From the IMG/VR virus record IMGVR_UViG_3300028840_008153, positions 35,143 to 99,142 of that record: DNA of 64,000 bases. One strand, 5' to 3'. This DNA is from a virus (Duplodnaviria; Heunggongvirae; Uroviricota; Caudoviricetes). Both the position numbers and the translations under genes were made by a program. The stretch's first letter is position 1. Every line of letters begins with the position of its first letter. Shown here in pieces: positions 11,481-60,029 of the stretch. Below the pieces are notes generated by a model. It was not told where the DNA came from. It searched no databases and worked only from the letters and a program-made list of their open reading frames with translations.

Positions 11481-11828
11481 TTATTTAGCCAGACGCGGAG
11501 GAGTTCCTAAGTTCATCCCCGTTCGCAGAAACTCCCTTGCGGCGCGGATGGTCGGGTCAATCGCTGCGTCTTCTCGATGAAGCCGCATGATGTCTATCGC
11601 CGTGCGCCGCGCGTCTCGTTTGAGCAATTGTTGCAGTCCGCCGGCGCCGGCGCCAAGCCCCGCGCCTGCTCCTGCTCCAATCAGGGCTCTCAACAAAGCG
11701 TTATCGTCATCATCGGCAGACATGTAACCTCCTACCGCTCCGGGAACCGCCCCAATCAAACTGCCCCGCAGCGCCGCCGACGGCACGGAGATCAGTGCTT
11801 CTTTGATCAAAAAGACGTGTGGGCTCAT
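11481..11828 (-). CDS. Small glycine-zipper protein with FLIKEA N-terminal motif
   Basis: MSPHVFLIKEA followed by two GxxxG-rich hydrophobic segments. Confidence 0.6.
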   Translation of the reverse strand: MSPHVFLIKEALISVPSAALRGSLIGAVPGAVGGYMSADDDDNALLRALIGAGAGAGLGAGAGGLQQLLKRDARRTAIDIMRLHREDAAIDPTIRAAREFLRTGMNLGTPPRLAK

Positions 11829-12438: not shown

Positions 12439-14060
12439 CACTGGCACTCCATCGATACCTGACGCGCCGTGACGGAGGCATCCCCGTAACTGGCCACCGA
12501 TGCAGGCGGGGCGTCTGATGTCTCGAAAAGCTCCTCGAACACTGGATTTGCGGCGTCGAACACTTCGACGTCGTCATCCTCTGCCCCGGGTTCATCTTCT
12601 CCGCCCGGGACACTTAAGTCAACGGTCTCCGTCGGTACAACCTGTTCAACGAAGACGATGTATGTGGTGTGTGGCGGGATGATGTCCCGCAGGTACTTGA
12701 ACATCCCGAGCCCGGGAGCGTCCTCGTCGAAGGACCCCACACGTGCCCTGATCACGAAGAGATTGTTCCTCAGAAGGTTTTCCATGACGAACTGGAGTGG
12801 GTTGATTGTCGCCGGCAAGTTCGACGGAACCGGCTCAGTCTGGGGATCTTCTCGCAGATCCAGCAGATTGGCGAGCGTCTGTCCGTCTGCCACTCCTCGT
12901 GCGTGGACCTGCTCCCAGAACAGTTCCACGTCTGCCGGGAAGCCTCCCACCTCGAAACGGACCACTGCCTTGTTGTTTTCGTCCAGACCGAGGTACTCCA
13001 AGGCAACATTATGGTTGCGAAAGGACAGCTCCGCAAAATAGCCGCCAGAAAGGAAGTTGTCCGACATCGCCATCGCCGGAACCAGGCTGTAATCCGGGTC
13101 ATTGGTTGCCAGCTCCACGATCTCAAAAGCATCGGTCAAGGAGTCGCCCAGGAAGACGGTGTCGCCCACAGCGACAGTCGCCGTCGCCCCCAAGGGCGCT
13201 CGATACACGTTAAGGTCGGTCACGATCAGCTGGGAGGTTTCCTCCGTGCGGACGACCTCCACGGTTTCCTGCGGGCTCAGGCACACGGGCGCGCCCGAGA
13301 GGGCCGCCAGGAAGCTGGTCAGCGTCGCCTCCGTGAGACCGCCGATGACGCGCGAATCCCAGATTGCGTTGATCAGTCCCCTGTAGAATTCACTGGATTG
13401 GAGATGAAGCCCCAGCACGTATCCGAAATGTATCCACAGGTAATCCAGGTCCATGTTGCCCTTATAGACCCAAAGGCCAATCTCGGTGTCGACGACCGTG
13501 CCGTTGGAATCGACGACATCGGCCTTGGCCACGAGCGGGTCTTCAAAGGGGTCCTCCCGAAATCGGATCAGATTCCTATTTTTGTCGATGTCGTAGTCGG
13601 CGCCGGCCACCCAGGTCTTGCTGGGGTGGACCACTAGGTTTTGGAGTACGAAGGGGCAGTCCACGAGCGAATCGGGGAGCCGGATCTGCCGCAGGTTGGG
13701 ATTGTCCGTGCCGCCGTAGGTCTGCACGAAGCCCGCCTCGCGCCCGGGCACGGAGCCCGTCTGGTTGCCGTAGACCAGATCCCCGGCCTGATAGATCGAC
13801 GGGATGCTGTCCGACTCACTGCGCTTGGCGACCAGCAGATACCAGTCCTCCGTGTGAAAGACCGGGACACTGAAGCGGGAAAGGGACGCGATTGTCTCCA
13901 GATAGTTCAGGTAGGTCTGGGACGCCTCATAGCCCGACGAACGGTAGTGGACCTGGAGCTTGTGCCACTCCTCGAAGATGTTGAACCAGAACGATCCCAA
14001 CTGGGCCAGCAGCTGCGAGCCCTGATTGAAATCGTCGGCTGGATACGTTGGCAGTGTCAT
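12438..14060 (-). CDS. Putative baseplate wedge protein (gp7/tail protein I-like)
   Basis: 540 aa; LWIHFGYVLGL...YRGLINAIW...LAALSGAP and LRDIIPPHT segments typical of wedge proteins; adjacent to the J-like gene. Confidence 0.45.
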   Translation of the reverse strand: MTLPTYPADDFNQGSQLLAQLGSFWFNIFEEWHKLQVHYRSSGYEASQTYLNYLETIASLSRFSVPVFHTEDWYLLVAKRSESDSIPSIYQAGDLVYGNQTGSVPGREAGFVQTYGGTDNPNLRQIRLPDSLVDCPFVLQNLVVHPSKTWVAGADYDIDKNRNLIRFREDPFEDPLVAKADVVDSNGTVVDTEIGLWVYKGNMDLDYLWIHFGYVLGLHLQSSEFYRGLINAIWDSRVIGGLTEATLTSFLAALSGAPVCLSPQETVEVVRTEETSQLIVTDLNVYRAPLGATATVAVGDTVFLGDSLTDAFEIVELATNDPDYSLVPAMAMSDNFLSGGYFAELSFRNHNVALEYLGLDENNKAVVRFEVGGFPADVELFWEQVHARGVADGQTLANLLDLREDPQTEPVPSNLPATINPLQFVMENLLRNNLFVIRARVGSFDEDAPGLGMFKYLRDIIPPHTTYIVFVEQVVPTETVDLSVPGGEDEPGAEDDDVEVFDAANPVFEELFETSDAPPASVASYGDASVTARQVSMECQ

Positions 14061-14344
14061 GCCGTTCCCTTAATGAACTTGTGGTAGCGGCTTATCGCAC
14101 CCTTCAGCGTGGGCCGAACATTGTAAGCCCTGTGCGTGTGCGTCTCGTACCACGTCTTCCCGTCAACGACCGCCTTGCCCACTGCCGGCGTTGCCTCGCC
14201 GTTGGGCCCATGGTGCCAGACAGCCTTGGCATCCATGACCTGCTTGCGCTCTTCGGGCGTGAGCTTGACCTTGTTCTTTTTGAGGGTCTCCCACTTAGGA
14301 CCCTTCGTAGCCTCTTTGATCAGAAACAGGTGACAATCCATCAT
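14057..14344 (-). CDS. Small basic hypothetical protein with FLIKEA motif
   Basis: MMDCHLFLIKEA...; coupled to both neighbours by overlapping start/stop codons. Confidence 0.65.
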   Translation of the reverse strand: MMDCHLFLIKEATKGPKWETLKKNKVKLTPEERKQVMDAKAVWHHGPNGEATPAVGKAVVDGKTWYETHTHRAYNVRPTLKGAISRYHKFIKGTA

Positions 14345-15603
14345 CCCACCAATCCTGTCGGTTTCATCAGCAACAGATTTTTCAGCTGCCTGACGGCGCG
14401 CACGGGCAGGTGTATGACCCGCCTGTTGGGCAGCACCAGGTCCTCGGGCATGTCCTCATTGGCCAGGAACTGCTTGTCCGGGTACTTCGTGCGCCACTCG
14501 GCCAGCTCTTCCTTTGGCACGACATAGATGGCGCTCTTCATGCCCGTGTTCCGAGGCGAGACAACCTCCCCGGGCACCAAATTGAAGTAGGCCGAAGGCG
14601 TCTTGGACCGGGAGTATCGGATCAGGCCGTATTGTCCGTAGTCCTTACCTGCAGGCATGATGCCGCCTTCGGTGCCAAACAGCTCCTTGCGCAGCTGCTT
14701 GTGCTTCTCGGGATCGAACTTCGCCCGGCCCCGGAAGCCCTTGGTTTCCTCGACGGATTTGAGCAGCCCCTTGCGCGCAGCCTGCTCGGCCGTCAGTTGC
14801 TGGCCGGATTCGAGCAGCGGCGCCAGGTTGGTCGTTCGGTGTGCGAAACCCGATTGGCGGGAGAGCATTTCCCGAACGCGCTTTTGAAGGCGCGCCGTCT
14901 CCTCGCCGTTGGGCATCTCCGGCTTCTCCGGCGCCTCGGTCTCTGCCGGAGCAAGCGCGGCCTTGTCCAAAGGCTCACTGGTCACGCGCGCCTGCGCGAT
15001 GCCCAACTCCTCGTCCAGCTTCCGCTTGTACTTGCGGTAGCGGCTCTGGCGCAGGAACCAAGCCTTTTGAAGCGCCTCCTTCTCCTTGCGGATCTGCTCC
15101 TGCCGCTCGGGCGTCAGCTTCGCCCTCGCAGCCCGAACGGCGGCCTTGTACTTCTGCGCCTTGTCGCCGTACATCAATGCGACATCAATGGGCAGCTTGC
15201 CCTTCCGGTGCCACGTGAAGATCTGGTAGTCCCCGGACTCGGGGTGATAGGGCGACGCCTTGAACTCTTCATGCCGCCGCAAGCGCTCGGCCATCGTCAG
15301 CATCTTGGCTTTGGACTTCAGCGGGACCGTGTAGTCCAGATCCACGGAGCCGGGCACGTGTGTGCCCATGGCCATCGAGCCCGTCAGGAAAGGCGTCACG
15401 TTCAGCCGTCTGGCCAGAGCCTTGCGCCCTTCTTCAATCGCCAACTGCTCCTCTTCTGGAGAGAGTGGCGGCCCTTCAGGATCGGGCGTTCCGATCGTGA
15501 CCAGATCGCTTTTGCCTTCTGGCCCCCACGGGTTGGGAATGCTCAGGATGACCTTTGCATCCTTCTGCATGGCACAGTCCATGAGGTATTTGGCGTGATC
15601 CAT
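14341..15603 (-). CDS. Pol-beta superfamily nucleotidyltransferase fused to a possible ADP-ribosyltransferase-fold domain
   Basis: hGS (15381-15376), DLD (15342-15334) and third Asp in PIDVA (15186) form an NTase triad. C-domain starts FAHRTTNLAPLLESGQQL (His at 14841), like the HxT..NL..IL..G..L start of ART-fold proteins. Confidence 0.6.
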   Translation of the reverse strand: MDHAKYLMDCAMQKDAKVILSIPNPWGPEGKSDLVTIGTPDPEGPPLSPEEEQLAIEEGRKALARRLNVTPFLTGSMAMGTHVPGSVDLDYTVPLKSKAKMLTMAERLRRHEEFKASPYHPESGDYQIFTWHRKGKLPIDVALMYGDKAQKYKAAVRAARAKLTPERQEQIRKEKEALQKAWFLRQSRYRKYKRKLDEELGIAQARVTSEPLDKAALAPAETEAPEKPEMPNGEETARLQKRVREMLSRQSGFAHRTTNLAPLLESGQQLTAEQAARKGLLKSVEETKGFRGRAKFDPEKHKQLRKELFGTEGGIMPAGKDYGQYGLIRYSRSKTPSAYFNLVPGEVVSPRNTGMKSAIYVVPKEELAEWRTKYPDKQFLANEDMPEDLVLPNRRVIHLPVRAVRQLKNLLLMKPTGLVG

Positions 15604-15611
15604 CACTCACC

Positions 15612-17267
15612 TCACACGGGCAAGGCCGGGACGGGCTCAAGGGCAACGTCGATGTCTTCCACTTCCAAAAAGAAAATCGTGGTCCGGTTCGTGACGCCAA
15701 GCTCGGGCTCGTCGGGCACCGTGATGCCGTCAGGGTCGCGCAGCGTGACCACCGTGCCGTCCGGGCGTCGGATCTGGCAGAAGAAGTCCAGCGGCGAGAC
15801 GGCAATGATATTCGCGCCAGCGGCGTTGTGTGCGGCGTCATGAACGATCGAGGCCGGAAGCCGGCCCGTATCAAACCCCCTTCCGTTGACGCGGTCGGCG
15901 ATGGCCTGCTTGATGGCCGAGGCGTCGGGCGCTTCGCCGGAGGACTGGTACTGCACCTTCAAGCTGAGCGCCACGAACGCGGGCACGGGCGCGCGCACGA
16001 GGTAGTCGGCCTGCGGGTTGCGCGTGTCCCGGTCCACGGCCCTCTCCTGCAAGGTCTTGATGTCAGGCAGGTAAAGCACGTTGACGTTGAATGTTTCCTT
16101 GGAGACGTTCTCGGTCATGCCGGTGACGTCCACGTCGGGAGCCTTGAACTGCACGATCGAGGTCTGGTAGCGGGAGTAGGCGCCCTCGATGATGTTGGCC
16201 ACCGTGGGCACGAACTCGTTGGAGTCCTGGCTGAGATCCAGCGACCGCGTCTCGGCCGTGATCTCAAGGGAGCCGTAATCCTCGGGCGCGTCCGTGGGGA
16301 AGACGCCCTCCACGAGGTAGAAGCCCGGGGCCACGTCCCGCCCGATGCTGAACTGGAAAACCTTCAGGTCGGCGTCGACCAGCGTGGCTTCGACCTCAAT
16401 TGAGATCGATTCGGGAAGGGTCCGGGTCTTCGCCCATACGTCTGCCTTGCCGCCGTAAGCGATCTCGAAGAGGTTGTGTCGGTCCCGCAGCATCTCCGCG
16501 TCACCGAAGCCGGTTGTGGAGACGGCTATGGTCTCGGTGACCGTGTCCTTGATGAGCGCTTCGATCTGGGCCCGGCCGGAGAAGACCGAAGGCGTCACGC
16601 CGTCGGCCAGCTTGGCAACCAGCTCCTGGTTGGTCTCGGTGTCGATGCCCTCGGTGAAGTCCTCGGCAGCCACGGCGTCAATCAGATTGCCCGGCGCGGG
16701 CGACATGGTGAAGCGCGTGTTGCGCCGGGCCTGGTAGGCGCTGCCGGTCTCCTCGGCCTCCACCGGAATCGTGAAGGCGTAGGTCCCGTCGGAGCGAAGC
16801 TCAATCAGCCGCTGCTGGTCGGAGACGACGGCCTCCTGCTCCGTCACGCCGATGTAGGTCTGCGTGTTCGTGTAGTTGAGCCCGTTGGCCGTGAAGAGCG
16901 TACCCTGCTGAATGGAGGTGGTCAGGTTCGCGCTGATGATGATCGTGATCTGGCCCGTGGACTTCGTGCCCGTCGAGCGCGTGATCAGGAAGTTCGACAG
17001 CACCTCGTCGACGATGTCGTCGTCAGCGAGCGTGGGGTCCGCGTTGATGGCCTGAAGCGAGTGTGAGCGCCGCTCCAGATCCAGGTTGGCGTTGTTGAGC
17101 GTATGGAAGATCCCGGCCACCCGGATCACCAGATCACGGAAGACCCGGCCCTCCGTGAGATCCATCGACGGGTACTCTTCGGCCAGGAAGGTCTTCAGGA
17201 ATTCTTCGGCCTGCGCAATCGCGTCCGAATCCAAATCATTTATGGATGTGATCGAGGGTGCGGCCAT
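15612..17267 (-). CDS. Baseplate wedge protein (baseplate J/gp6-like)
   Basis: 551 aa; MDLTEGRVFRDLVIR, IPVEAEETGSAYQ and FTEGIDTETNQEL motifs of J-like proteins; downstream of the gp25-like gene. Confidence 0.75.
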   Translation of the reverse strand: MAAPSITSINDLDSDAIAQAEEFLKTFLAEEYPSMDLTEGRVFRDLVIRVAGIFHTLNNANLDLERRSHSLQAINADPTLADDDIVDEVLSNFLITRSTGTKSTGQITIIISANLTTSIQQGTLFTANGLNYTNTQTYIGVTEQEAVVSDQQRLIELRSDGTYAFTIPVEAEETGSAYQARRNTRFTMSPAPGNLIDAVAAEDFTEGIDTETNQELVAKLADGVTPSVFSGRAQIEALIKDTVTETIAVSTTGFGDAEMLRDRHNLFEIAYGGKADVWAKTRTLPESISIEVEATLVDADLKVFQFSIGRDVAPGFYLVEGVFPTDAPEDYGSLEITAETRSLDLSQDSNEFVPTVANIIEGAYSRYQTSIVQFKAPDVDVTGMTENVSKETFNVNVLYLPDIKTLQERAVDRDTRNPQADYLVRAPVPAFVALSLKVQYQSSGEAPDASAIKQAIADRVNGRGFDTGRLPASIVHDAAHNAAGANIIAVSPLDFFCQIRRPDGTVVTLRDPDGITVPDEPELGVTNRTTIFFLEVEDIDVALEPVPALPV

Positions 17268-17689: not shown

Positions 17690-18160
17690 TCATTTTATGG
17701 CCAGAGAAACCGGCATGATCACCTCTCGTGACTCTCCCGCAGCCGAAGTCAACCGCACGATCAGCGTGATTTTCGACGCGCCCTGATCCATGTTGAAACT
17801 GCTGAGTTCGGCCGACGCGAAGATCTCATCGTCCGGCGGAGGGTTCGCCGCGTCTATGCCCAGCGCCAATTGCTGCCGCACGCTTTCGACGGCCAGCGCG
17901 AATTCGTTCTTGAGGTCCGATTCGTCCTGAAGCCGGCCCTGCCGCATGGCTTCCACAAACGTCGTCCCCACCGTGGGATCATGGTGAATCGAACCCACGT
18001 CCGTCAGAAAGATCGACGTGAAGCTCTGCGCGAGCTTCTGGATGCCCGTCACGACCTCGCCCGCGTCACCGATGGCGAGCGTGACCTGTGCCTCCCCGGC
18101 GGGCTGCAGCCCCTGGAAGATCAGTAGGTCCACTGAGCGTCCCGTGTAGTCGGTGCTCAT
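17690..18160 (-). CDS. Baseplate wedge subunit, gp25/lysozyme-like
   Basis: 156 aa; VTGIQKLAQSFTSIFLTDVGS...PTVGTTF signature; upstream of the J-like gene. Confidence 0.7.
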   Translation of the reverse strand: MSTDYTGRSVDLLIFQGLQPAGEAQVTLAIGDAGEVVTGIQKLAQSFTSIFLTDVGSIHHDPTVGTTFVEAMRQGRLQDESDLKNEFALAVESVRQQLALGIDAANPPPDDEIFASAELSSFNMDQGASKITLIVRLTSAAGESREVIMPVSLAIK

Positions 18161-18594
18161 GAAGCAGGCTCCTTCTGCTTCTTGTCCTCGCCCAGCACGC
18201 GCGTCACGTAACCGATCGAGTTGCGCTTGAGCGGCCCGTTGGGCAGCCCGTGCCCTGCGTTACGCGAGGCCCCGTGCACGAACATCCGCACGCGCGTGCG
18301 CGTGCGCATGCGATGGTCCCTCTCAAAAGCCGCCAGGATGTCCGCGCAGTGCTTGAGTGCCTGAACCTCCTTGGCCAGCCCGTCGTTAACAAAAAGCGCT
18401 TCGTAGCGGGCGTTGGCTGCCTCACGGCTGAACACCTGAGCCATGCCTTCGAAATTGAACCGGTCAACGTCGAAGACCTCAAAGAAGTCCTGCCACGGAC
18501 GGGGGCCTCCGGCGGCCATGGCCTCCCCAACGAGCTTCTGGTTCTGAACCAGATACTCGATCACCTTCTGGGTTTGTTCGTCCAGTTCGGCCAT
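18157..18594 (-). CDS. Hypothetical baseplate-region protein
   Basis: 145-aa ORF translationally coupled on both sides. Confidence 0.55.
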   Translation of the reverse strand: MAELDEQTQKVIEYLVQNQKLVGEAMAAGGPRPWQDFFEVFDVDRFNFEGMAQVFSREAANARYEALFVNDGLAKEVQALKHCADILAAFERDHRMRTRTRVRMFVHGASRNAGHGLPNGPLKRNSIGYVTRVLGEDKKQKEPAS

Positions 18595-18980
18595 TACTCT
18601 TCCTTCTTTTCAGGCTCTTTCTTCTCGGGCTCTTTGGGCTTCTCCTCCGAGGGCTTTTCCTGCGCGCGCTCTTCGGGCGTCTTCTTCCGCCCGCGCTTAA
18701 GCTCCCAGTTGGCCAGCTGCTTCTCCTTCATGCGCCGCATTTCAGGCGACATCGGCTGCTTGTACGACGCAGAGATGTAAGGGCCTGACAGCCCGAGCCC
18801 CGGAGCCACACGCCAACCCGGCTCGTCGGGGTTGCGTCTAAGATCGTAATCGACCCCAATCAGATGTGGAAATCCGAGGCTCATCCCCAGGCGCCTGTGG
18901 GGAATGACTGTCTGCAAAGCCTCCGGGCGCACGCCCACGCCAATGACAGCCTGCTTCAAAAGGTATAGATGCGGGTTCAT
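18594..18980 (-). CDS. Hypothetical protein with YLLKQA N-terminal motif
   Basis: MNPHLYLLKQA...; Lys/Glu/Pro-rich tail. Confidence 0.55.
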   Translation of the reverse strand: MNPHLYLLKQAVIGVGVRPEALQTVIPHRRLGMSLGFPHLIGVDYDLRRNPDEPGWRVAPGLGLSGPYISASYKQPMSPEMRRMKEKQLANWELKRGRKKTPEERAQEKPSEEKPKEPEKKEPEKKEE

Positions 18981-28672: not shown

Positions 28673-29161
28673 CTACCGTGTCAAACGACGAACCAGCTTT
28701 CGAACACGTGGTGACGCGGGCCACTCTTCTTCCAGAGCTTCCTCCTCGCCAAAAAGCGATTCTGGCCGAGGCGTTTCTGGAGCAACCATGATGGGCGCCC
28801 CCGCAGCAACTTCTTCAAGGTACTGGCGATGCGAGGCCGGCGCCGTTGCTGTCAATGCGCCCAAACCGAGACCGCCCAGTACGCCTCCAGCGAGTGCGGG
28901 CCATCTGCCCTTCGTGCCGGCGAGACGAGCAAGTCCCAGCCCCGCGCCCGCGCCAACTCCAGCACCAACGCCGCCACCAACGAGTCCCCGCAAAAGAGGG
29001 TCGCCCTGACTGGTCTCGTAGGAGGACAAGATGTCCTCCAACTGTTGGGCCTCGATCTCGGCCCGACGCTGCCGCTCCAAAGCCTTGCGGCGCATGGCCT
29101 CCATCTGGATGTCAGCCGTGGCAATGGCCTGTTTGATCAGGAAGGCTCCCGCTTTGTCCAT
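28673..29161 (-). CDS. Glycine-zipper protein with FLIKQA motif
   Basis: MDKAGAFLIKQA; two GxxxG hydrophobic stretches. Confidence 0.6.
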   Translation of the reverse strand: MDKAGAFLIKQAIATADIQMEAMRRKALERQRRAEIEAQQLEDILSSYETSQGDPLLRGLVGGGVGAGVGAGAGLGLARLAGTKGRWPALAGGVLGGLGLGALTATAPASHRQYLEEVAAGAPIMVAPETPRPESLFGEEEALEEEWPASPRVRKLVRRLTR

Positions 29162-48947: not shown

Positions 48948-50786
48948 CTAGTACCCCTTGCCCTTGGGAACCCTTCCAAACTCCACGCCCTTGGCCAGTG
49001 ATGGAATGTAGGAGGTGCCGTGCTCATCAGAGGACTGGGTGCGGTGAACCGCCTTGGTCAGTCCCGATCTGAGGTGGAATCCTCCCATCCGAACCATCCA
49101 ATCCGAACTGTGTGAAAGCGTCTCCATCGCGCGCGTCATCTCGGGCGTGAAGGAGGGCGCGTCTGCGTGTGCCTTAACAGCCTTTACGCCGTATTCCCCC
49201 AACTCCTTGGCGACCCTCGGCGTAATCTTCGTCCCGATCGAATAATGCAATGCCGGGGATTCAAGGTATAACCCAATGCCCCGCTTCGGCGCAACCGTTT
49301 TGAATCCAAACCGTGGCCGATAACCACGCGTCATCGAGTCAAATTCTACCACGTCATCGGGCACCGTATCCTCGGGGCCGTCCAGGTCGGAGATGCGCAC
49401 GTGATTGATGAGTCCCCGTGAAAGCAGCTCCACGTTGCGACGGTTGGCGGAGAAGTTACTGTCGTTCATGGCCTTCAGGAACTGCTGCGTGTAGTAACGC
49501 CGCCCCTCCCCAACACCCTTGTACTTCACGATCTCTGCGGGGTTGGGAAGCCCGCTCGACAGTACATCGCCGGCTTCCACACGATCGCCCTTCTTGGCTT
49601 TCAACTCCTGGTGCGGAGGAACCCAAGTGCGTGTTCCGGCAATAGTTACGTACTGCCCGCCCTGTGGGGCTTCCTCTATTGCATCCACTCTGCCATCGAG
49701 CGTCGCCAGTGCCGCGCCGCCCTGAAACGTCTTGGGCACCGAGACCAACTGCTCGATCAGATCCATGCCGGTCTTCTGCGAACTGGCATCGGCCTGCCCG
49801 CCCGTATGCTTGGCGGAAAGCTGCCCCTGGCCGATGGGTTCGGCGATGGCTTGCGCCGCAGCAATGCCGATATTGTCTCCCAAAGGCGGGAAACCGCCAC
49901 GCTCACGCACGCCCGCGCAGTGCTGACAAACGCCGTCCTGGGCCTGACAAGTAATGGGCGAACGCACAATGATTTTCTTGTCGCCCAGCTTGCGAAGATC
50001 CTTCGGATGGAGCACCGATCCGGCCGACATGCCGCCTGCTTTTTGGGCCAGAACCGTGCCCTCGTTGTCGGGATCGGAGGCGTCCACAGGAACCCCGTTG
50101 GCCGTGCCGCAGTCCTTCTCCGTGACGATCAGGCGATGCGCGGCCATTGCCAATTGCTTGGCCAGGAAGCCGGAACGGGGCGTGGCGAACTTGACGCTCA
50201 CGTAGCCTTTTCGCGCCCCGTAAGCCCCCGCCCAATACTGCACGGGATCGAGCCCCTCGGAGTAGGAATTGAGCAGTGGAATCGGTATGGGCCTGTCCTT
50301 GTGATCGACTACGAGCATGTCGCCCGCGTTGAGCGCCCTGAGCTGCCCGGCGTTCCCGCGTGCGCCCGACACAACCTGCAACGCCAAGGGGTTGTTGCTC
50401 TTCTTGGCCTCCGCAAAGGTCTGGTCGGTTGTCTCGTCAAGACGATCGGCGATCAGCTTGATGATCTTCCTGTTCTTGGTTTCCTCGTCAGCGCCGGACT
50501 GCGCGACGGCGTTGATGCTGCGCGCCAGGTTGCGGCGGGAGACCTCCACGCTCTTGGGCGTGCGCAACGACTCCAGCGAGAGGCTGGTCACGCCGCCGTA
50601 CGTGGTAGCCGCGTCCTGGGCCAAATTGTGCAGCTTGTGATTGAAGTCGGCATACTTGTCGGGGTAGCGATCGGCCATCTCCTGAAAGAGCGTCTTGAGC
50701 GTCTTCTTGTCAATGACGCGCTTGTAGTCCCGAAGGTCTTCGGGAAGGTTCTCATTCAGAAGAAGTTGTCCGACCGTCGTCTGCAT
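48948..50786 (-). CDS. rpoC: DNA-directed RNA polymerase beta' subunit, C-terminal half
   Basis: TTVGQ, SGARGN, SYSEGL...GARKG (bridge helix), EKDCGT, VRSPITC...GVCQHC (Zn site), AAQAIAEP...KHTGG (trigger loop His). Confidence 0.93.
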   Translation of the reverse strand: MQTTVGQLLLNENLPEDLRDYKRVIDKKTLKTLFQEMADRYPDKYADFNHKLHNLAQDAATTYGGVTSLSLESLRTPKSVEVSRRNLARSINAVAQSGADEETKNRKIIKLIADRLDETTDQTFAEAKKSNNPLALQVVSGARGNAGQLRALNAGDMLVVDHKDRPIPIPLLNSYSEGLDPVQYWAGAYGARKGYVSVKFATPRSGFLAKQLAMAAHRLIVTEKDCGTANGVPVDASDPDNEGTVLAQKAGGMSAGSVLHPKDLRKLGDKKIIVRSPITCQAQDGVCQHCAGVRERGGFPPLGDNIGIAAAQAIAEPIGQGQLSAKHTGGQADASSQKTGMDLIEQLVSVPKTFQGGAALATLDGRVDAIEEAPQGGQYVTIAGTRTWVPPHQELKAKKGDRVEAGDVLSSGLPNPAEIVKYKGVGEGRRYYTQQFLKAMNDSNFSANRRNVELLSRGLINHVRISDLDGPEDTVPDDVVEFDSMTRGYRPRFGFKTVAPKRGIGLYLESPALHYSIGTKITPRVAKELGEYGVKAVKAHADAPSFTPEMTRAMETLSHSSDWMVRMGGFHLRSGLTKAVHRTQSSDEHGTSYIPSLAKGVEFGRVPKGKGY

Positions 50787-50787
50787 A

Positions 50788-52668
50788 TCAGGTGCCTATG
50801 GCCAATGGGCGTTCCTTGGGCTTGGGTTTGCTGGCAAGTGCCGGGTTTGGCTTTTCTGGCAGCGCCGGGAAAAGACTTGCCGTTCCCTTGCCATACCGGG
50901 CACGATCGACGGCTGCTGCCGTTCCGGGGGCCGGAAGATCAGAAGGTTCGGGTGTTTCGGGGAAGTTGGCCGGGTTTGGTTCCTGCCGTTTGGCCATGAA
51001 CTGCTCGAAGCTCCCCTGAAAAGATGGCGGCGTCTGCCCGCCCGTAAAGCCCGCGCGCTCGGCCAGTCCGACGGTGCTCGGCTGCGCGCCTGGAGCCTCG
51101 CCCCTGAGACGGAAGAAGGCGTTGGTGCCCATGCGTCGCTGAAGATCCCTGCGTGCCGTGTCGCTCGAAGGGATTCCGGCCGTGTCGGAACGAACGGCCC
51201 AGCCGCCCGGCACCTGCGTTGCTCCCTCGGGAGCCTGCGGAATGCCGGCCCCCTGAACGCCGGGGCTGGGAGCGCTGCGAGGCGCTCGCGTGCCGCCGGA
51301 AGGATCGTAGCGCGTGCCACCGGTCTGTGTGGCGCGCGGTCCGGCCGGCCCGCCGATCCCGTAATGCTTCTCCAGCGCGGAGCGAAGTCCGTAGTTGCCC
51401 CGCGCGGCGTAGCGGATGGCCCGTGCCTGATCTCGTGGGTCTGTCAGCCCTCTCATGTTGATCTGATTGATGGCTTCCTGCATCCGTCCCTTCGCGCCAA
51501 CCTGCCCCATCTCCTCGAACTTGGACGCCTGTCCTTGGCGCTTCGCCAGGGCCGCGCGCGTGGAGGCCAGCATCTCATCAACGCTCTTGGGCTGCTGCTG
51601 CCCTGCCGTGCCGCCCGGAGTAACCTTTCCGCTTTGCAGCTGGTTCCAATACGCGCGTCCTTGGTGGCCCCAACGCCCCGCGCCGGGCGTTGTTCCGCCC
51701 GTAAACGGATTTACACTCCCGCTTTGAAAGGCCGGTGACGCTCTGGGGGGCACGCCTCCAGCGGGCGCCGCCGGAGCCGCTGTCGGGGCCGCTGCCGGGG
51801 CTCCCTGCATTTGCTTGAACTCGTTCTTTGAAAGCGGCTGCTTGCCGCGCGGCAGATTGCGAAGGTACGTCTGGTACGACGCCTCCTCCTGCGCGCCAAA
51901 ACCACTGAGATCGATCCCCGTGCTGCTGTGAAGCTGCTTAAGCCCGCGCCCTGTTGCACGCGCCCATTCTTGGCTCCACGGGTTCAGCCAGTTCCAATTG
52001 GAGCGTCTTTGTGCGTCTGCCTGCGCCAAATCCGAAGCGTAGTCGCTGGTCTTGAGAAGCACGTGCATCGCTGCCTGGTCTTCCTCGTCGAAGCCCGCCT
52101 GCTTGCAAAACAGGTCCACGCCGTGATCGAAGGCAAGCTGCTGCTCCCCATCACGCTCGGCGCTGCCCCAATGCATGAATGGCTGTTGACTGTACATGGG
52201 TCGCGCTCCCATCCGATACCGAGGCGTCCTCGTGACGCTTTCCATTCCGTGGCTGCTGAAGGGGGTATATCCTTGCGCCCTCGGATAACCTTGGCTGCCC
52301 GGATACCCCTGCGCTCCCGGGTATCCACCCTCTCCAGGCATTCGGGGCTGTTGCTGCTGGCCTCCGCCAAGCAGCTCTCCGGCCATGGGGACGAACGAAC
52401 CCACCATGGCGAGACTGCCAAGACGGTTGAGCCATGTGTCGAAACCGCCGCCGGCTGCAGGCGCTGCCGCGCCAGTGGCCTTCGCTGCCGTACCTGCGGT
52501 TCGTGCCGTATTGGCCGCTGTACCTGCGGTTCGCGCCATGTTGGCGGCCGTACCGGCTGCACGCGCGCCGCGCGCGGCACGCCACGCGCCCCACGCACCA
52601 CGTAACGCGCCCCAGAAAGCCCGCTTCTGGAGCGCTTGTTTGATTAGGAAACTCTCAGCGTCTCGCAT
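50788..52668 (-). CDS. Low-complexity Ala/Gly/Pro/Gln-rich protein with FLIKQA motif
   Basis: MRDAESFLIKQALQKRAFW; internal repeats; AFDHGVDLFCKQAG motif. Confidence 0.6.
   Translation of the reverse strand: MRDAESFLIKQALQKRAFWGALRGAWGAWRAARGARAAGTAANMARTAGTAANTARTAGTAAKATGAAAPAAGGGFDTWLNRLGSLAMVGSFVPMAGELLGGGQQQQPRMPGEGGYPGAQGYPGSQGYPRAQGYTPFSSHGMESVTRTPRYRMGARPMYSQQPFMHWGSAERDGEQQLAFDHGVDLFCKQAGFDEEDQAAMHVLLKTSDYASDLAQADAQRRSNWNWLNPWSQEWARATGRGLKQLHSSTGIDLSGFGAQEEASYQTYLRNLPRGKQPLSKNEFKQMQGAPAAAPTAAPAAPAGGVPPRASPAFQSGSVNPFTGGTTPGAGRWGHQGRAYWNQLQSGKVTPGGTAGQQQPKSVDEMLASTRAALAKRQGQASKFEEMGQVGAKGRMQEAINQINMRGLTDPRDQARAIRYAARGNYGLRSALEKHYGIGGPAGPRATQTGGTRYDPSGGTRAPRSAPSPGVQGAGIPQAPEGATQVPGGWAVRSDTAGIPSSDTARRDLQRRMGTNAFFRLRGEAPGAQPSTVGLAERAGFTGGQTPPSFQGSFEQFMAKRQEPNPANFPETPEPSDLPAPGTAAAVDRARYGKGTASLFPALPEKPNPALASKPKPKERPLAIGT
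52265..52330 (-). repeat. 18-nt coding repeat GYP(G/R)xQ, three to four copies
   Basis: GGYPGAQGYPGSQGYPRAQGY. Confidence 0.6.
52480..52570 (-). repeat. 30-nt coding tandem repeat (ARTAGTAANx, three copies)
   Basis: GTACCTGCGGTTCG recurs at 52490 and 52520. Confidence 0.7.
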
Positions 52669-54572: not shown

Positions 54573-57500
54573 CTACTTGACGATCACCCGATCGCCCAGC
54601 GAAATGTCGCCCTTCTTGTACGCCTTGATCACATCCGCCTTGCTGGCGAACACGCGCGGGGGCGTGTCCTTCTTCGCCGTGCTGGCGAGGTAAAGACCCA
54701 TCAGGAACTCCTGCTTCGGCAGGTAGTGAACCTTGAAATTGGACGATGACTTGAGGTTCTTGGACGGCAGCATCTTCTCAACCGCATCGGTCACGGCCTC
54801 GTCGGTGACAGGCACGTGGTAGTTCATCGCGTCGCCATCGAAGTCGGCATTGAAGCCCGGTGTCACCACGGGAGAGATCTGCAACGTCTCGCCCTTCGTG
54901 AGCACGGGCCACGCGGCCATGAAGCCGTAACGGTGAAGCGTGGGCGCGCGGTTGATCAGCACCGGGCGCTTCTGTGTCTCGGACACCAGCGCCTTTCTGG
55001 CAATCGGCGTCTGGTTGGCCACGGCCTCGGCTGCGGCCATCGCAGGCATGCCCTCGCGCACGAGCCTGCGCATGATGAACGGGCGATAGATGGTCCACGC
55101 CTTGGGCTCGGGCAGACCCACCTGATCCATGTTCAGATCCGGGTTGGGCGTGATGGTGGCCCGTCCCACGATGTCCACCGGAGCGCCAAGAACCCTGCGC
55201 TGGAACATGCCCAGCTTCGGGCTGGTGCCGAAAACGTGCTTCAGCAACCCCTTGACCTTCTTCTCCTTGGTCTTGGCCTGAACCGGATCGCCCAGCCCGG
55301 TGACGGCCTTGAAGGCGTTGTAGACCTGCAGCCGCTCGTCTGCGGACGAGTCCACGTCCACGACTTCCCGAATCTCCTTGAGCGTGTCGTTGGAGTTGAT
55401 CAGATCCTGGTAGAGCAGGTTCGCGTCAGCCACCAGCGGCACGTCCCTGTACTTGCCGATGGGACGGAAGGACGGCGGGATGACAGGCACCTTCGTCATC
55501 ACCCAGTCCTCGGGTCTGAGCTTGTTCTTCTGCATGTTCTTGAGGTAGCCCAGAACCTTCACGGCCTTGTCACGCTTGGAGCGCGGGCCCTCACGAATGA
55601 GCTGCTCGTTGGTGGCGATTGCATCATCCAAGTTGATGTCTGACAGCGCCTTATGAATGGCCTCGCCGCCATACTTGCCCTTGTACGGGACCTTGCCGCC
55701 GATCCACTGCTCGTACTGGTTCTGCGTGAGGTTCAGCAGCCGTCGAATGGGCTCCTCCATGACCGGATTGGGAATGGGTTCGCTCAGTTCGATATGGGAC
55801 CAACGCGCTCCCCCGTGCCCTCCGGTCAGCCCACGATCGAAGAGGCCGCCGCCAATCTCGTCCAGCGAGTCGCCCGCCACGGTCTTGGGGCTGGTCAGCC
55901 CGCCCGACGAGAGCTTGGTCACGTCCTTGTCGGTCATGGCGAACAGCTGCATCCGCTCGCCGTCCTTCTTGACGTTGATGCCGGCGCCCTGCAGGTGCGT
56001 GAGGAACTTGTCGTAGACCATCGGCACCTTCGGCGAAGGCGGCGTCAGGCCCAGACGGAAAGCCCGCCAGAAATCATCGTTGCGTTGCCCACGAATAACC
56101 TGCGCATCCCTGAGCACCTCGGTCGCGCCGTGAGAAAGGAGCGCGTTGATCTCCATGTTGGAGATGCGCTTGGCGCCGAACTCCCCGCCCTTGGCCGGTA
56201 GCCCCTCGCTGGTGTACGCGCCCACGTCACGCCCCCGCCCCTTGGATTCGGCGGTGTGGTGCAGTTTGTAGATGAAACGCTCGCCCGTGAGAATGTTTTT
56301 GACCTTGCGGCCCGTGGTGGGATCGAAGACGTCGTCGGTGTCCTTCATCCCGGCGTCCTGCAGTTCCTTCTTCACGAAGTCGACCATCGACTCTTCGCTG
56401 AAGCCTGGAACCTTGTATGCCTTGCCGCGCTTGCGGGCGATCTTGCCCAGCAGCGCCTCGTGGACCTGGGAGGGGTTGCCGCGCGAGATGATGCCCAACG
56501 GGTTGAGCAGGATGTGGTACGGATTCCCGTCCTTGTCGTGGACCATCTGGTCGTCGGGAATGATCTTGGCGATCACGCCCTTGTCGCCGTAGCGGCCGGC
56601 CAGCTTGTCCCCCTCGCGCGCGGGCATGTACGCCTTGACGGTGACGTTGTAGCCGCCGCCCTTGGTCTTGTCGATGTCGGTGACGACGCCCTCGGCCTCA
56701 TGGTTCCACGTGACGGCATTGTCGGAGAACATCGTTTTGTGGCCACGGTGGACGGCCGTGGGCTTGGCCTTGTTGAGCGAGAGAATCAGCGGGTCGCCGT
56801 ACTTCACCACGGTGCCGGGCTTGACCACACCCTTGCTGTCGATCGTGCCCAGCTGCTCCTTGTTGAACTGGCTCGGGTAGATGGAGACGTATTCCTTCCT
56901 GCCGGTCAGGATCGTGGGATCGCCCTCGACCTCGTGCTGGTACATGTGCTCCGAGGACATCATCTTGGCCGCGCTCTCGGAGACCACCACCGCGTCCTCG
57001 TAGTTGAGCCCCTTGTACGGCATGTAGGCCACCCGCAGGTTGTTGCCCATGGCCACGGCGCCCTTGTCATCCGTGTAGTTACTCTTGGCCAAAAGCTGGT
57101 TGGGCTTGATCTGGTCGCCGATCTGGACCACGGGCGTGTTGTGCAGGAAGGTCTTCCGATTGAACGGGAAGTTCTGGTAAAGCTCGTGGTTCTCCTTGGT
57201 TCCGTCGGCGTAGCGGACCTGCACGTAGTCCTTGCCAACGTCGGTAACCACGCCCCGGTCGCGTGCGCGCACCGCACCCACGCGCGTGCCCAGACGCTCA
57301 TCGAAGGACTCATCGCCCTCATCACCCACGAGGTTCTGGACCAGCGGCGCCTCGGGGTTCTTCAGCGGCAGCGACTGGATCACGTACTTGGCGCCCATCA
57401 GCAGGCGCCCGCCCTTGATGCCGCTGACCATCGGCGTCATGTTCGAGCTTGCCGTGAACATCTGCGAGGTCTTGGGCAGCTCGAAGTCCACCTGATCCCG

Positions 57501-60029
57501 GTCCACGAACTGGACCTGGCGGGAGCGGACCATGGCCCTGACCTTGGGCGTGTCCTTCGCCATTTCTCCGGGGAAGGCCACCACGGAAGCGGCGGCCTGC
57601 GCGGCCGAAACCATCTCGGGCTGACCCGTCTTGGGGTTGCGCATGGACGTGTAGAAGTGCCCATCGCTTCCGCGCACCACGCCTTCGGCAACCCTGGAGT
57701 CAACTCCGATCTTGGAGGACTCGGGAGCCCGGATCGGGTCGATGAACCCGAACTGGCTGGGCTGCACGTTCCTGGCTTCATCGGGCACCGCGTCAAGGCT
57801 GGGAATGCCGCCTTCGCCAAGGCGCAGGATGCGCAGGTTCTGGTCGTACAGCTCCATCGGGTTGACTTCTTCGACCGGCATGCCCATGCCGCTTTTCAGC
57901 AGCACGCTGTAAAGCTGGGGCGTGAGGGCGCCAGTCGGAATATGCTGGACGTTCCCCCGCAAGGTGGAACGCCACAGCATCTTCCGTCCCAGTTGCCCGG
58001 CATCCTTGCGGATGCGTTCGGCGAAGAAGTCCTCTGGCGAATGCAGCGTCTGGAAGGCCAGCGAATCACGATCGTCGATCTCTTCCTTCTTGTTGAAGAT
58101 GTTGAGCAGCTTCTGCGACGTGCGAAGCAGTGCCGAAGGCCCGGCGTGACGGTGACGTTCGCCCAGCGTGATGTCCGTCGTGTCCTCGTCCAGTTCCATC
58201 TTGTTGAAGACGTTCAGCAGCCCCTCGCCCTGTTCGTTCGGAGCGCCCAACGTGAAGCCGCCGCCAACGCCGGCCGCCGCACGCTTGCAGCCGAAGATCT
58301 CCTCGGCGCGCTTGATGGGCGTGTTGGGCTTGTGCACGGCGAACGTGATGTGGAAGCGGTACTCGTGCCCGTTGTCCTCGCCCTTCGGCAGCGGGGTCAG
58401 CCCCAGGCTCTTGCGGTAGTTCTTCAGGTCCGGGCTGTCACACTCGATGAACCAGACCCGGTCGACATCCTTCCATCCCGCAGGCGACAGGCTCACAAGA
58501 CGCTTCAGAGCGAAACGCGCGGGCGTGCCGTCCCGGGCAAAGCCTTTCCACTTCATGGGGCCGTGCTTCTTGTAAATCTTCTTGGCCTCGTCCGCTCGCA
58601 CCAGTGTGATGTGGGGAGAATTGGGGGTGCGTTCACACTCAACGCCCTCTCCCTTGAGAGAGGACAGCGCCGCATCCACCAGTCCCTTGTGGACATCCAG
58701 GTAGACCCACGGCTCACCCTTCTTGCCGATCTCCGCGCGAATGGTGCCACGGAACCAGAGGCGCTGCCATTTGCGGTCCGACTCGCGTGCGCCGATCTTG
58801 GCTTCCTTCTGCCACGAAGCCTTCTTCAGCACCATCTTGCCGATGACCTGCTTCTGTATCTTGTCCCAGGACGGAAGCGCGCTGATGCCACGATCATCCA
58901 CGTAGACGTCGGCCGTGACCTTGCCCGAACTGTACGGAGGCTGATCCGGGTTCTCGTTGATGTAATCGTAGGGAAGATCGTGCTTATGCAGGTAGTCCCC
59001 GATCAGCTTCTTGTCGCCACGGACCGTGAAGATGATGATCCGGTAGCCAAGGCGCTGGAACTCCTTCAGAGCCTTCTGCACGCCCGGGCGGGGCTTCGGA
59101 ATGCTCTTGGCATCGAACTTCTTGTACATCGTGGCGATCGTGCCGTCGAGGTCAATGGCCACGGTCGGAGGGCGTGTTCTGTCGGCAGCCGCCTTGGACT
59201 GCTGTTGCTGCAGCTTTTCCTTGTCGAGCTGCAGTATCTCCCTGTTGGCCTTCTGCTCGGACTGCGCGTCCTCCTGCAGGTCACGGCGGTTGACCAGCGA
59301 CGTGAAGGCACGGCCGACGGCGCCAGGGTCATCGGCCTGCGCGTTGGCCTGCAGCAGTTCGTTGCCCCAGTATTGGCGGATGTCCCTGTCCTGCACGCCC
59401 ATGGCCTTCAGGATCGGGTAGAGCTTCAGCGTCGATTGGCCCACACGCAGGCGGAAAAGCCCGGTCTGCGGCTCCATGTAGACGCGAAAGGACGGCCCCG
59501 TGCCCGGCTTGACATTAACATGCGCTTCCAGGGTTCCGTTGTCCTTGACTCGCGTGTAAACGCCGGGCCGAAGCCGCATCTGGTTGGCCACCGTGTACTC
59601 GTTGCCACGGTAGATGAATGTCCCACGATCGGTGGCGTAGGGCACGTGCGCGATGGTGCCGGCCTTGCGGTCCATCAACTTGTTGGTGGCCTTGTCGAAC
59701 AGGTGCCACTCGCCCGTGATCTTCCGCTCCAGCGACTTGCCCTGCATGATGGCCTTCTTCTGGTCGGCCAGCGAGAAGCGGTCCTTCTTGTCGAGGGCGA
59801 CGTTGCGAAGCTCAAGCCTGTAGCGGCTGTTCTCAAGCGGGTAGGCGGTGGACAGCGTGTCCATGACGTTGTTGAAGATGCCGTCACGCATCGTCTTGTT
59901 GTCGCCGAACCCACGGTAGGAGACGGGTTCGACGGGACGCAGCGGCAGCGGCTCCGGCGGCTTCACGGCTGGAGCGACCGGGGGCGCTGCCTCCTTAACG
60001 ATGCACAGCACGTCATCAAGTATCGCCAT
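54573..60029 (-). CDS. rpoBC: RNA polymerase beta::beta'(N-half) fusion with inserted HAD and 2H domains
   Basis: beta motifs GNNLRVAYMPYKGLNYED, GDKLAGRYGDKGV, LNPLGIISR and KLHH; beta' motifs HIEL, VPVIPPSFRP, NRAPTLH and catalytic NADFDGD (54851-54831). Confidence 0.95.
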   Translation of the reverse strand: MAILDDVLCIVKEAAPPVAPAVKPPEPLPLRPVEPVSYRGFGDNKTMRDGIFNNVMDTLSTAYPLENSRYRLELRNVALDKKDRFSLADQKKAIMQGKSLERKITGEWHLFDKATNKLMDRKAGTIAHVPYATDRGTFIYRGNEYTVANQMRLRPGVYTRVKDNGTLEAHVNVKPGTGPSFRVYMEPQTGLFRLRVGQSTLKLYPILKAMGVQDRDIRQYWGNELLQANAQADDPGAVGRAFTSLVNRRDLQEDAQSEQKANREILQLDKEKLQQQQSKAAADRTRPPTVAIDLDGTIATMYKKFDAKSIPKPRPGVQKALKEFQRLGYRIIIFTVRGDKKLIGDYLHKHDLPYDYINENPDQPPYSSGKVTADVYVDDRGISALPSWDKIQKQVIGKMVLKKASWQKEAKIGARESDRKWQRLWFRGTIRAEIGKKGEPWVYLDVHKGLVDAALSSLKGEGVECERTPNSPHITLVRADEAKKIYKKHGPMKWKGFARDGTPARFALKRLVSLSPAGWKDVDRVWFIECDSPDLKNYRKSLGLTPLPKGEDNGHEYRFHITFAVHKPNTPIKRAEEIFGCKRAAAGVGGGFTLGAPNEQGEGLLNVFNKMELDEDTTDITLGERHRHAGPSALLRTSQKLLNIFNKKEEIDDRDSLAFQTLHSPEDFFAERIRKDAGQLGRKMLWRSTLRGNVQHIPTGALTPQLYSVLLKSGMGMPVEEVNPMELYDQNLRILRLGEGGIPSLDAVPDEARNVQPSQFGFIDPIRAPESSKIGVDSRVAEGVVRGSDGHFYTSMRNPKTGQPEMVSAAQAAASVVAFPGEMAKDTPKVRAMVRSRQVQFVDRDQVDFELPKTSQMFTASSNMTPMVSGIKGGRLLMGAKYVIQSLPLKNPEAPLVQNLVGDEGDESFDERLGTRVGAVRARDRGVVTDVGKDYVQVRYADGTKENHELYQNFPFNRKTFLHNTPVVQIGDQIKPNQLLAKSNYTDDKGAVAMGNNLRVAYMPYKGLNYEDAVVVSESAAKMMSSEHMYQHEVEGDPTILTGRKEYVSIYPSQFNKEQLGTIDSKGVVKPGTVVKYGDPLILSLNKAKPTAVHRGHKTMFSDNAVTWNHEAEGVVTDIDKTKGGGYNVTVKAYMPAREGDKLAGRYGDKGVIAKIIPDDQMVHDKDGNPYHILLNPLGIISRGNPSQVHEALLGKIARKRGKAYKVPGFSEESMVDFVKKELQDAGMKDTDDVFDPTTGRKVKNILTGERFIYKLHHTAESKGRGRDVGAYTSEGLPAKGGEFGAKRISNMEINALLSHGATEVLRDAQVIRGQRNDDFWRAFRLGLTPPSPKVPMVYDKFLTHLQGAGINVKKDGERMQLFAMTDKDVTKLSSGGLTSPKTVAGDSLDEIGGGLFDRGLTGGHGGARWSHIELSEPIPNPVMEEPIRRLLNLTQNQYEQWIGGKVPYKGKYGGEAIHKALSDINLDDAIATNEQLIREGPRSKRDKAVKVLGYLKNMQKNKLRPEDWVMTKVPVIPPSFRPIGKYRDVPLVADANLLYQDLINSNDTLKEIREVVDVDSSADERLQVYNAFKAVTGLGDPVQAKTKEKKVKGLLKHVFGTSPKLGMFQRRVLGAPVDIVGRATITPNPDLNMDQVGLPEPKAWTIYRPFIMRRLVREGMPAMAAAEAVANQTPIARKALVSETQKRPVLINRAPTLHRYGFMAAWPVLTKGETLQISPVVTPGFNADFDGDAMNYHVPVTDEAVTDAVEKMLPSKNLKSSSNFKVHYLPKQEFLMGLYLASTAKKDTPPRVFASKADVIKAYKKGDISLGDRVIVK
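58290..58780 (-). other. 2H phosphoesterase domain inserted in RNAP beta
   Basis: Two HxT motifs 87 aa apart: PHITLV (58613-58605) and FHITFA (58352-58344). Confidence 0.8.
58830..59175 (-). other. HAD-superfamily phosphatase domain inserted in RNAP beta
   Basis: Motif I VAIDLDGT (59153-59139), motif II IIIFTVR, motif IV VYVDDR (58898). Confidence 0.85.

Follow-up and report, generated by a model that had tools for sequence, protein, structure and literature searches.

The described proteins closest to the one studied here are ADP-ribosyltransferases (ARTs) that act on nucleic acids or are packaged in virions, the polyvalent proteins of phages, and the minimal nucleotidyltransferases GrpB and DUF4269. 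DarT2 carries an H-Y-E residue set and a catalytic Arg, to which DarT1 adds an Asp (PMC11543638), whereas Tpt1 is defined by an H-H-h motif, an R-H-R-R tetrad and an N-terminal winged-helix lobe (PMC8120803). The phage T4 enzymes Alt, ModA and ModB belong to the R-S-E type (strand-1 Arg, S-T-S, Glu). Polyvalent proteins join unrelated enzymes in one phage polypeptide, with SNF2, inorganic pyrophosphatase (InPase) and C39 peptidase as hallmark domains (PMC5512222). Here, we describe a gene found in a stretch of 64,000 nucleotides from an uncultured phage (hereafter, the window), whose product combines a nucleotidyltransferase (NTase) domain with an ART domain in only 420 amino acids (aa), that is, two unrelated enzymatic domains in a single phage polypeptide. 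From the sequences of its relatives, the two domains probably constitute one coupled nucleic-acid-modifying unit, previously undescribed, which recurs in dozens of sequences from uncultured phages and metagenomes.

The NTase-ART gene occupies positions 14341–15603 of the minus strand (−), from an ATG at 15603 to a stop codon at 14341–14343. The open reading frame (ORF) extends to a GTG at 15606 (14341–15606, −), and the ATG, which follows the sequence GGTGA, is the likelier start. Residue numbers throughout are those of the database copy of the protein, P0002, also of 420 aa. The source phage is about 200 kb in size. Its record comprises 163 kb, estimated to be 78% complete, and 198.5 kb is the length of the longest contig that carries this protein; about 61% of the bases are G or C, and the minus strand bears nearly all the genes. 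All the motifs listed in an earlier note on this DNA are present, namely AMQKDAKV near the N-terminus, G75-S76, D88-L-D90, D140, a PLDKAA linker and FAHRTTNLAPLLESGQQL at the opening of the C-terminal domain.

Two Domains Kept Together in Both Orders

A word-indexed search recovered only six close relatives of the protein, and the exhaustive comparison of a profile of these with 1.84 billion representatives yielded 121 proteins, 101 of them at E-values up to 1e-10. Both domains were present in 82 of 126 cluster representatives, 41 in the order NTase-ART and 41 in the permuted order ART-NTase, the remainder being NTase only (31) or ART only (13). Moreover, the NTase and ART domains were still adjacent inside proteins of 1,000–1,200 aa. 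As the pair survives a swap of domain order, a joint function fits better than the chance fusion of separate effectors, and the architectures thus argue for a coupled unit and against the two separable effectors that the earlier note had proposed. We regard as unlikely that the protein consists of two independent effectors sharing a polypeptide and directed at different host targets, as in larger polyvalent proteins. Such an arrangement would agree with the unrelated activities that polyvalent proteins typically combine (PMC5512222), with the flexible, variable linker between the domains and with the existence of solo forms of each; however, most of the NTase-only members are metagenome sequences of 67–230 aa, probably fragments (three others are giant SNF2 proteins), and adjacency is constant wherever both domains are kept, in either order.

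Family members were found in only 3 of 50,697 deposited phage genomes. All three, of about 187 kb, belong to cultured Vibrio phages (D69, D148 and D181), in which the gene, VPHD69_0021 in D69, is annotated as hypothetical and has the permuted form. Searches of viral contigs with single proteins found nothing, and neither did a search of 185,579 species genomes with the single pattern used, a negative of limited sensitivity that is not evidence of absence. Little or no gene context was available on the short contigs of P0014, P0045, P0048 and P0035. In the literature searched, we found no functional study of GrpB, DUF4269 or an NTase-ART fusion, and no description of a fixed pair of this kind in both orders; with only two domains, the protein also differs from typical polyvalent proteins.

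The Nucleotidyltransferase Domain

The N-terminal domain (residues ~45–205, 14989–15471, −) is, according to its model, a GrpB/DUF4269-like minimal Pol-beta-type nucleotidyltransferase fold with a helical tail. The signature of the Pol-beta superfamily (hG[GS], DxD and a third carboxylate) is complete, each residue being kept in at least 96% of the covering relatives (G75 in 103/103, S76 in 101/103, D88 in 104/106, D90 in 105/106 and D140 in 107/111). The AlphaFold2 model (predicted local distance difference test, pLDDT, 70–84) shows the alpha/beta core with a helical region behind it, as in that superfamily, and its best 50 VIA matches were all NTase folds or close fold relatives, e.g., RelA/SpoT-type synthetases. 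Family libraries gave fainter signals: the window protein scored 13 bits against Pfam NTP_transf_2 (cut-off 21, E 0.14) and matched neither Pfam GrpB (PF04229) nor any PHROG, whereas among 70 relatives, at E-values up to 0.01, DUF4269 was matched by 16 and NTP_transf_2 by 14; Polbeta matches were found in 4 of the 70. Sequence searches of the PDB with profiles gave chance matches only (MAEA, fucosyltransferase, Cas9).

The best NTase match was GrpB, aligned over the whole length of GrpB, and not the CCA-adding or RlaP families. The domain shares with GrpB and DUF4269 the GS...DxD...D catalytic set and differs from them in a conserved basic tail of its own, R-Y-K-x-Y-K-R (R188 in 97/111, Y189 in 100/111 and K193 in 108/111). 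We know of no substrate for either GrpB or DUF4269. The NTase is compact and, judging from residue conservation, probably active. It is followed by a low-complexity linker (PLDKAALAPAETEAPEKPEMP..., 14908–14988, −) of low pLDDT, whose length and sequence differ from one close homolog to another.

The earlier note had related this fold to the cyclases cGAS and DncV and to OAS. Enzymes of that group (CD-NTases) join the NTase core to a large C-terminal helical domain that forms a second nucleotide pocket, about 300 aa in total, but the domain found here is complete in about 160 aa and has no such C-terminal domain, which makes this relationship unlikely. It is also highly improbable that the protein interferes with signalling, the NTase making or capping a nucleotide second messenger (compare CD-NTases and OAS) while the ART consumes or modifies signals of host defence derived from NAD+ or ADP-ribose, such as those of Thoeris or CBASS. 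Weak PADLOC "oligonucleotide cyclase" matches in 7 of 40 relatives (best E 2e-5) and the occurrence of NADases among ART-fold proteins (PMC9503650) would speak for it; yet, besides the missing domain and the whole-length alignment with GrpB, the Glu and Arg conserved in the ART are more in keeping with transfer to an acceptor, and the association with SNF2 proteins described below would be left unexplained.

The ADP-Ribosyltransferase Domain

The C-terminal domain (residues ~233–412, 14368–14907, −) adopts in its model the split beta-sheet of the ART fold and represents a new family of H-Y-E class ARTs (H-[F/Y]-E), DarT-like in shape and not DarT by sequence or gene context. No library model recognised this domain, either in the window protein or in 70 relatives, the ESM Atlas returned no usable match, and in a full-length fold from six sequences the C-terminal half remained below pLDDT 50. 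Folded alone from a 70-sequence alignment, it reached pLDDT 91.1 and a predicted TM-score of 0.82, and its structural neighbours in the top 50 were almost all ART folds, the best Foldseek matches being DarT, yeast Tpt1, DarT1, M. tuberculosis DarT, OspC3, TreX and cholera toxin A1, at E-values of at least 0.025. What had been a weak ART call in the earlier note thus gains support from the fold.

The characteristic residues are H255-x-T257, E285, R291/R293, F309, Y322-G323 and P344-x-E346. In the model, strand 1 carries H255-x-T257, the middle strands hold or adjoin F309 and Y322, and a strand begins with P344-x-E346; E285 and R293 are in the intervening loop. Among the covering relatives, H255 and T257 were each kept in 78/79, Y322-G323 in 92/93, E346 in 93/95, F309 in 77/90 (plus seven with Tyr) and E285 in 76/81. 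Positions in the model and conservation, by which residue equivalence was judged, together place the domain in the H-Y-E (ARTD) class, marked by a strand-1 His (H-x-S/T), a Tyr in the middle strands and a Glu that begins strand 5. The conservation of the catalytic residues in relatives (at least 96% for the NTase and at least 98% for H, T, Y and E of the ART) indicates that both active sites are under selection.

DarT1 and DarT2 offer the closest pattern: they are single-domain ARTs of similar size, and they share with our domain the strand-1 H-x-T, a loop with an acidic residue and an Arg ahead of the aromatic residue, and the essential strand-5 Glu, the conserved E285 and R291/R293 recalling the catalytic Asp and Arg of DarT (PMC11543638). 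The differences lie in sequence and context. PF14487 (DarT) matched neither the protein nor its relatives nor the genome, the genome search being also empty in 14 control genomes, and the PADLOC DarT models did not match the family. In contrast to DarT, which belongs to a toxin–antitoxin pair, the ART shares a polypeptide with an NTase, its gene lies in the late operon of a phage, and it has no DarG or NADAR partner gene, and no macrodomain was found in the 163-kb record (estimated 78% complete). NADARs reverse guanine ADP-ribosylation. The only NADAR signal came from a 48-aa frame outside the window, far from NTase-ART (G000:C1:1642-1785, −), which matched the C-terminal end of NADAR at E 1.4e-4, below the cut-off, and has the look of a gene remnant or of a gene with a frameshift.

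Of the DarT/Tpt1-type relationship suggested in the earlier note, the Tpt1 side is not supported, since an invariant Glu and an aromatic residue replace H-H-h, and neither the R-H-R-R tetrad nor the winged-helix lobe is present. With Tpt1/KptA the domain would share the use of NAD+ and action on nucleic acids, which would suit the 2H/HAD repair context of this phage (see below). It differs from T4 Alt, ModA and ModB in the His of strand 1 and the lack of a PHROG match, and it is neither of the H-Y-D "ART-PolyVal" type of polyvalent proteins nor of the R-S-E Alt type. Two stand-alone ART members from metagenomes, P0035 and P0036 (214–225 aa), have hydrophobic, signal-peptide-like N-termini, and sequences such as these suggest that some relatives of the new ART family may be secreted toxins and not phage proteins.

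Association with SNF2 Proteins and a Giant RNA Polymerase

A SNF2 helicase was fused or adjacent to the module in relatives P0008, P0009, P0012, P0015, P0018, P0021, P0077, P0079 and P0112, and also in the metagenome loci L004, L026, L028, L030, L031 and L034, where the module is either fused to a SNF2 protein or directly followed by one. Fusions to a C39 peptidase were found in P0008, P0012 and P0015, and to InPase of the polyvalent-protein type (PF18823) in P0018 and P0024, so that relatives occur within proteins of 1,000–1,500 aa with SNF2, C39 and InPase domains. According to Iyer et al. 2017 (PMC5512222), InPase perhaps clears the pyrophosphate released by NTases, and the InPase fusions would accordingly point to NTase turnover. 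The window phage has a SNF2 protein of its own, encoded outside the window (L036:1002-4640; G000:C1:105001-108639), which has 1212 aa and is ~40% identical to the SNF2 domains linked to NTase-ART relatives; in it, the helicase is followed by a LigD 3'-phosphoesterase and an ATP-dependent DNA ligase adenylation domain, replacing NTase-ART. The next gene (L036:100-1047) encodes a caspase-like Peptidase_C14.

The same giant beta-beta' RNA polymerase (RNAP) was present in every module-bearing phage genome or contig with enough flanking sequence. Its gene lies directly upstream of the module in L003 and at a distance of four genes upstream in L006, L032 and L033, and it has another position in D69, in the record of L008 and in the window phage. 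In the latter, a fusion of beta and the N-terminal part of beta' (54573–60029, −; 1818 aa) and the C-terminal part of beta' (Rpb1_5; 48948–50786, −; 612 aa) are encoded by separate genes. The N-terminal extension of the former holds a 2H-SAK phosphoesterase (residues 470–567, 29 bits), which confirms the 2H domain that the earlier note had seen in the RNAP, whereas the HAD domain also named there corresponds to a weak HAD/LNS2 match below threshold. The RNAP homolog beside the ART-NTase gene in L003 (L003:1978-7998) carries a LAGLIDADG/homing-endonuclease insertion at residues ~1668–1735, probably an intein.

The SNF2, RNAP and fusion links favour a nucleic-acid substrate, short of proof. The same links bear on a role in RNA end-healing, in which a Tpt1/KptA-like ART would remove the 2'-phosphate left after a 2H enzyme opens a 2',3'-cyclic end and the NTase would restore 3' nucleotides, e.g., the CCA of tRNA, thereby countering host nucleases of the anticodon or acceptor stem. 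The 2H-SAK RNA-repair domain and weak HAD match of the RNAP, the LigD phosphoesterase and ligase of the SNF2 protein, the frequency of variable-order fusions among sequential repair enzymes and the RNA-repair NTases and KptA described in jumbo phages (PMC7824862, PMC9503650) are all in line with it. Nevertheless, we consider it doubtful: the features that define Tpt1 (PMC8120803) are absent, an invariant strand-5 Glu and aromatic residues being present instead, neither RtcB nor an Rnl-type RNA ligase was found in the 163-kb record, with its estimated completeness of 78%, and GrpB, not a CCA-adding or RlaP family, is the best match of the NTase.

The InPase and SNF2 fusions are better explained by substrate turnover than by a regulatory role of the NTase, in which it would nucleotidylate a toxic ART or its NAD+ site and keep it silent until delivery. 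MNT antitoxins AMPylate HEPN toxins, and a similar control is conceivable here. The strict adjacency of the domains, the absence of a macrodomain from the genome, with only the remnant NADAR-like match, and the high toxicity of DarT-like ARTs (PMC11543638) would fit such an arrangement, but ART-only proteins exist that have no NTase, and the literature searched offered no precedent for an ART controlled by an NTase; we judge this role very unlikely.

Gene Neighbourhood and N-Terminal Leader

The NTase-ART gene begins 8 nt past the stop codon of a Baseplate_J (gp6-like) gene (15612–17267, −; PF04865, E 9.1e-11), and its own stop codon overlaps the ATG of the next ORF (ATGA), from which we infer that it is translationally linked within a late operon. 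Further upstream are a weak match to a gp25-like wedge protein (17690–18160) and a sigma factor gene. Downstream, the translationally coupled gene is a 95-aa ORF with a leader (14057–14344, −; MMDCHLFLIKEA), which occupies a variable slot, and the genes on this side had no family match. The position between baseplate genes reported in the earlier note is therefore borne out on the upstream side only. Scans for promoters of the sigma-70-like consensus found none in the NTase-ART region, and on the coding strand there was no terminator-like site inside the gene or beside it. Gene order around NTase-ART is the same in the relative L010, whose protein is 74% identical. A conserved small partner gene downstream was considered and rejected, as the downstream genes are unrelated between loci except for the leader.

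This leader (MDHAKYLMDCAMQKDAK, 15553–15603, −) forms the N-terminus of NTase-ART and follows the motif M-x4-5-[FY]-L-[ILM]-x-x-A. It is conserved in close homologs and recurs in six otherwise unrelated ORFs of the window, all on the minus strand: NTase-ART itself, 11481–11828, 14057–14344, 18594–18980, 28673–29161 and 50788–52668, with cores such as FLIKEA, FLIKQA and YLLKQA. The last of these, a gene of 626 aa, lies directly upstream of the Rpb1_5 gene, between both RNAP genes, and two of the small leader ORFs run on into glycine-zipper-like stretches. In all six frames of the 163-kb record (203,880 residues) the loose motif occurred 24 times, and 6 of the 24 lie 5–6 codons after a start codon. 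As the leader codons and the upstream DNA differ among the ORFs, the signal lies in the protein. In L010, the slot after NTase-ART holds an unrelated 258-aa gene (L010:7257-8033) with the leader MNHHAFLIKEA, whose product has no Pfam match and contains an HTHPGE motif that recalls JAMM/MPN metalloproteases. In another phage fragment (L002:47-1494), the NTase-ART protein P0014 and the product of the gene that overlaps it downstream have in common an N-terminal motif of another kind (LQACRQELLKL and LAACRDELEKI), and leader sharing may thus recur in other lineages with other sequences.

The internal proteins of T4 are diverse, with a capsid targeting sequence as their sole shared feature (PMC3012670), and by analogy we read a leader shared by unrelated proteins as a candidate virion-targeting tag; it may serve in targeting or in processing. 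Its interpretation as a T4-like [LI]-x-E cleavage site was not adopted, as I-K-E is found in only two of the six leaders.

Proposed Function

We tentatively favour, with slightly less than an even chance in our estimate, a bifunctional enzyme in which both domains act as one unit on a nucleic-acid target after delivery with the virion. The NTase domain would move a nucleoside monophosphate from a nucleoside triphosphate to a hydroxyl group with release of pyrophosphate, and the ART domain, with its H-[F/Y]-E set and DarT-like conserved Arg, would use NAD+ to ADP-ribosylate a target, most probably a base or an end of a nucleic acid and not a protein. The NTase would work on the same substrate, at a 3'-OH end or on the ADP-ribose adduct, and the unit would cooperate with the SNF2 translocase of the phage. 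Made late, alongside the baseplate, the protein would probably be incorporated in the virion and delivered to the next host, acting there early in takeover, anti-defence or the protection of nucleic-acid ends. The proposed target rests on the nucleic-acid activity common to the closest ART structures (DarT1, DarT2 and Tpt1), the SNF2 links and the 2H-SAK domain of the RNAP; the proposed delivery, on the Baseplate_J operon, its synteny in L010, the shared leader and the relatives within C39-bearing polyvalent proteins. A gene among baseplate genes is also found for virion-packaged ARTs of the Alt family, and early action after injection would be predicted by the same likeness.

Several observations weigh against this proposal. 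Proteins are the usual substrates of H-Y-E ARTs such as PARPs and diphtheria-type toxins. No other domain is as common as SNF2 in polyvalent proteins in general, so its association may be unspecific, and the co-occurrence with the giant RNAP may reflect only shared ancestry. Furthermore, R293 is kept in only 56 of 74 relatives, the full-length model leaves the relative orientation of the domains unfixed, and no leader of this kind was found in G002, a more distant phage.

A more specific version would be a composite modification beyond the reach of either domain by itself, the ART for example adding ADP-ribose to a base or end of DNA or RNA and the NTase nucleotidylating the adduct, or the reverse order, to give a mark or end-cap resistant to known ADP-ribose hydrolases such as DarG, NADAR and macrodomains and installed by the injected enzyme with the SNF2 translocase; we consider it quite unlikely.

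For the bifunctional unit in general, the locking of the ART to an NTase in two permuted orders, together with the repeated SNF2 links, points to a two-step reaction on one substrate, carried out in part by an ART family that the domain libraries searched do not recognise. The permuted form in the cultured Vibrio phages D69, D148 and D181 makes this prediction directly testable, and the leader, common to six proteins that are otherwise unrelated, may act in this phage group as a portable tag for virion targeting.
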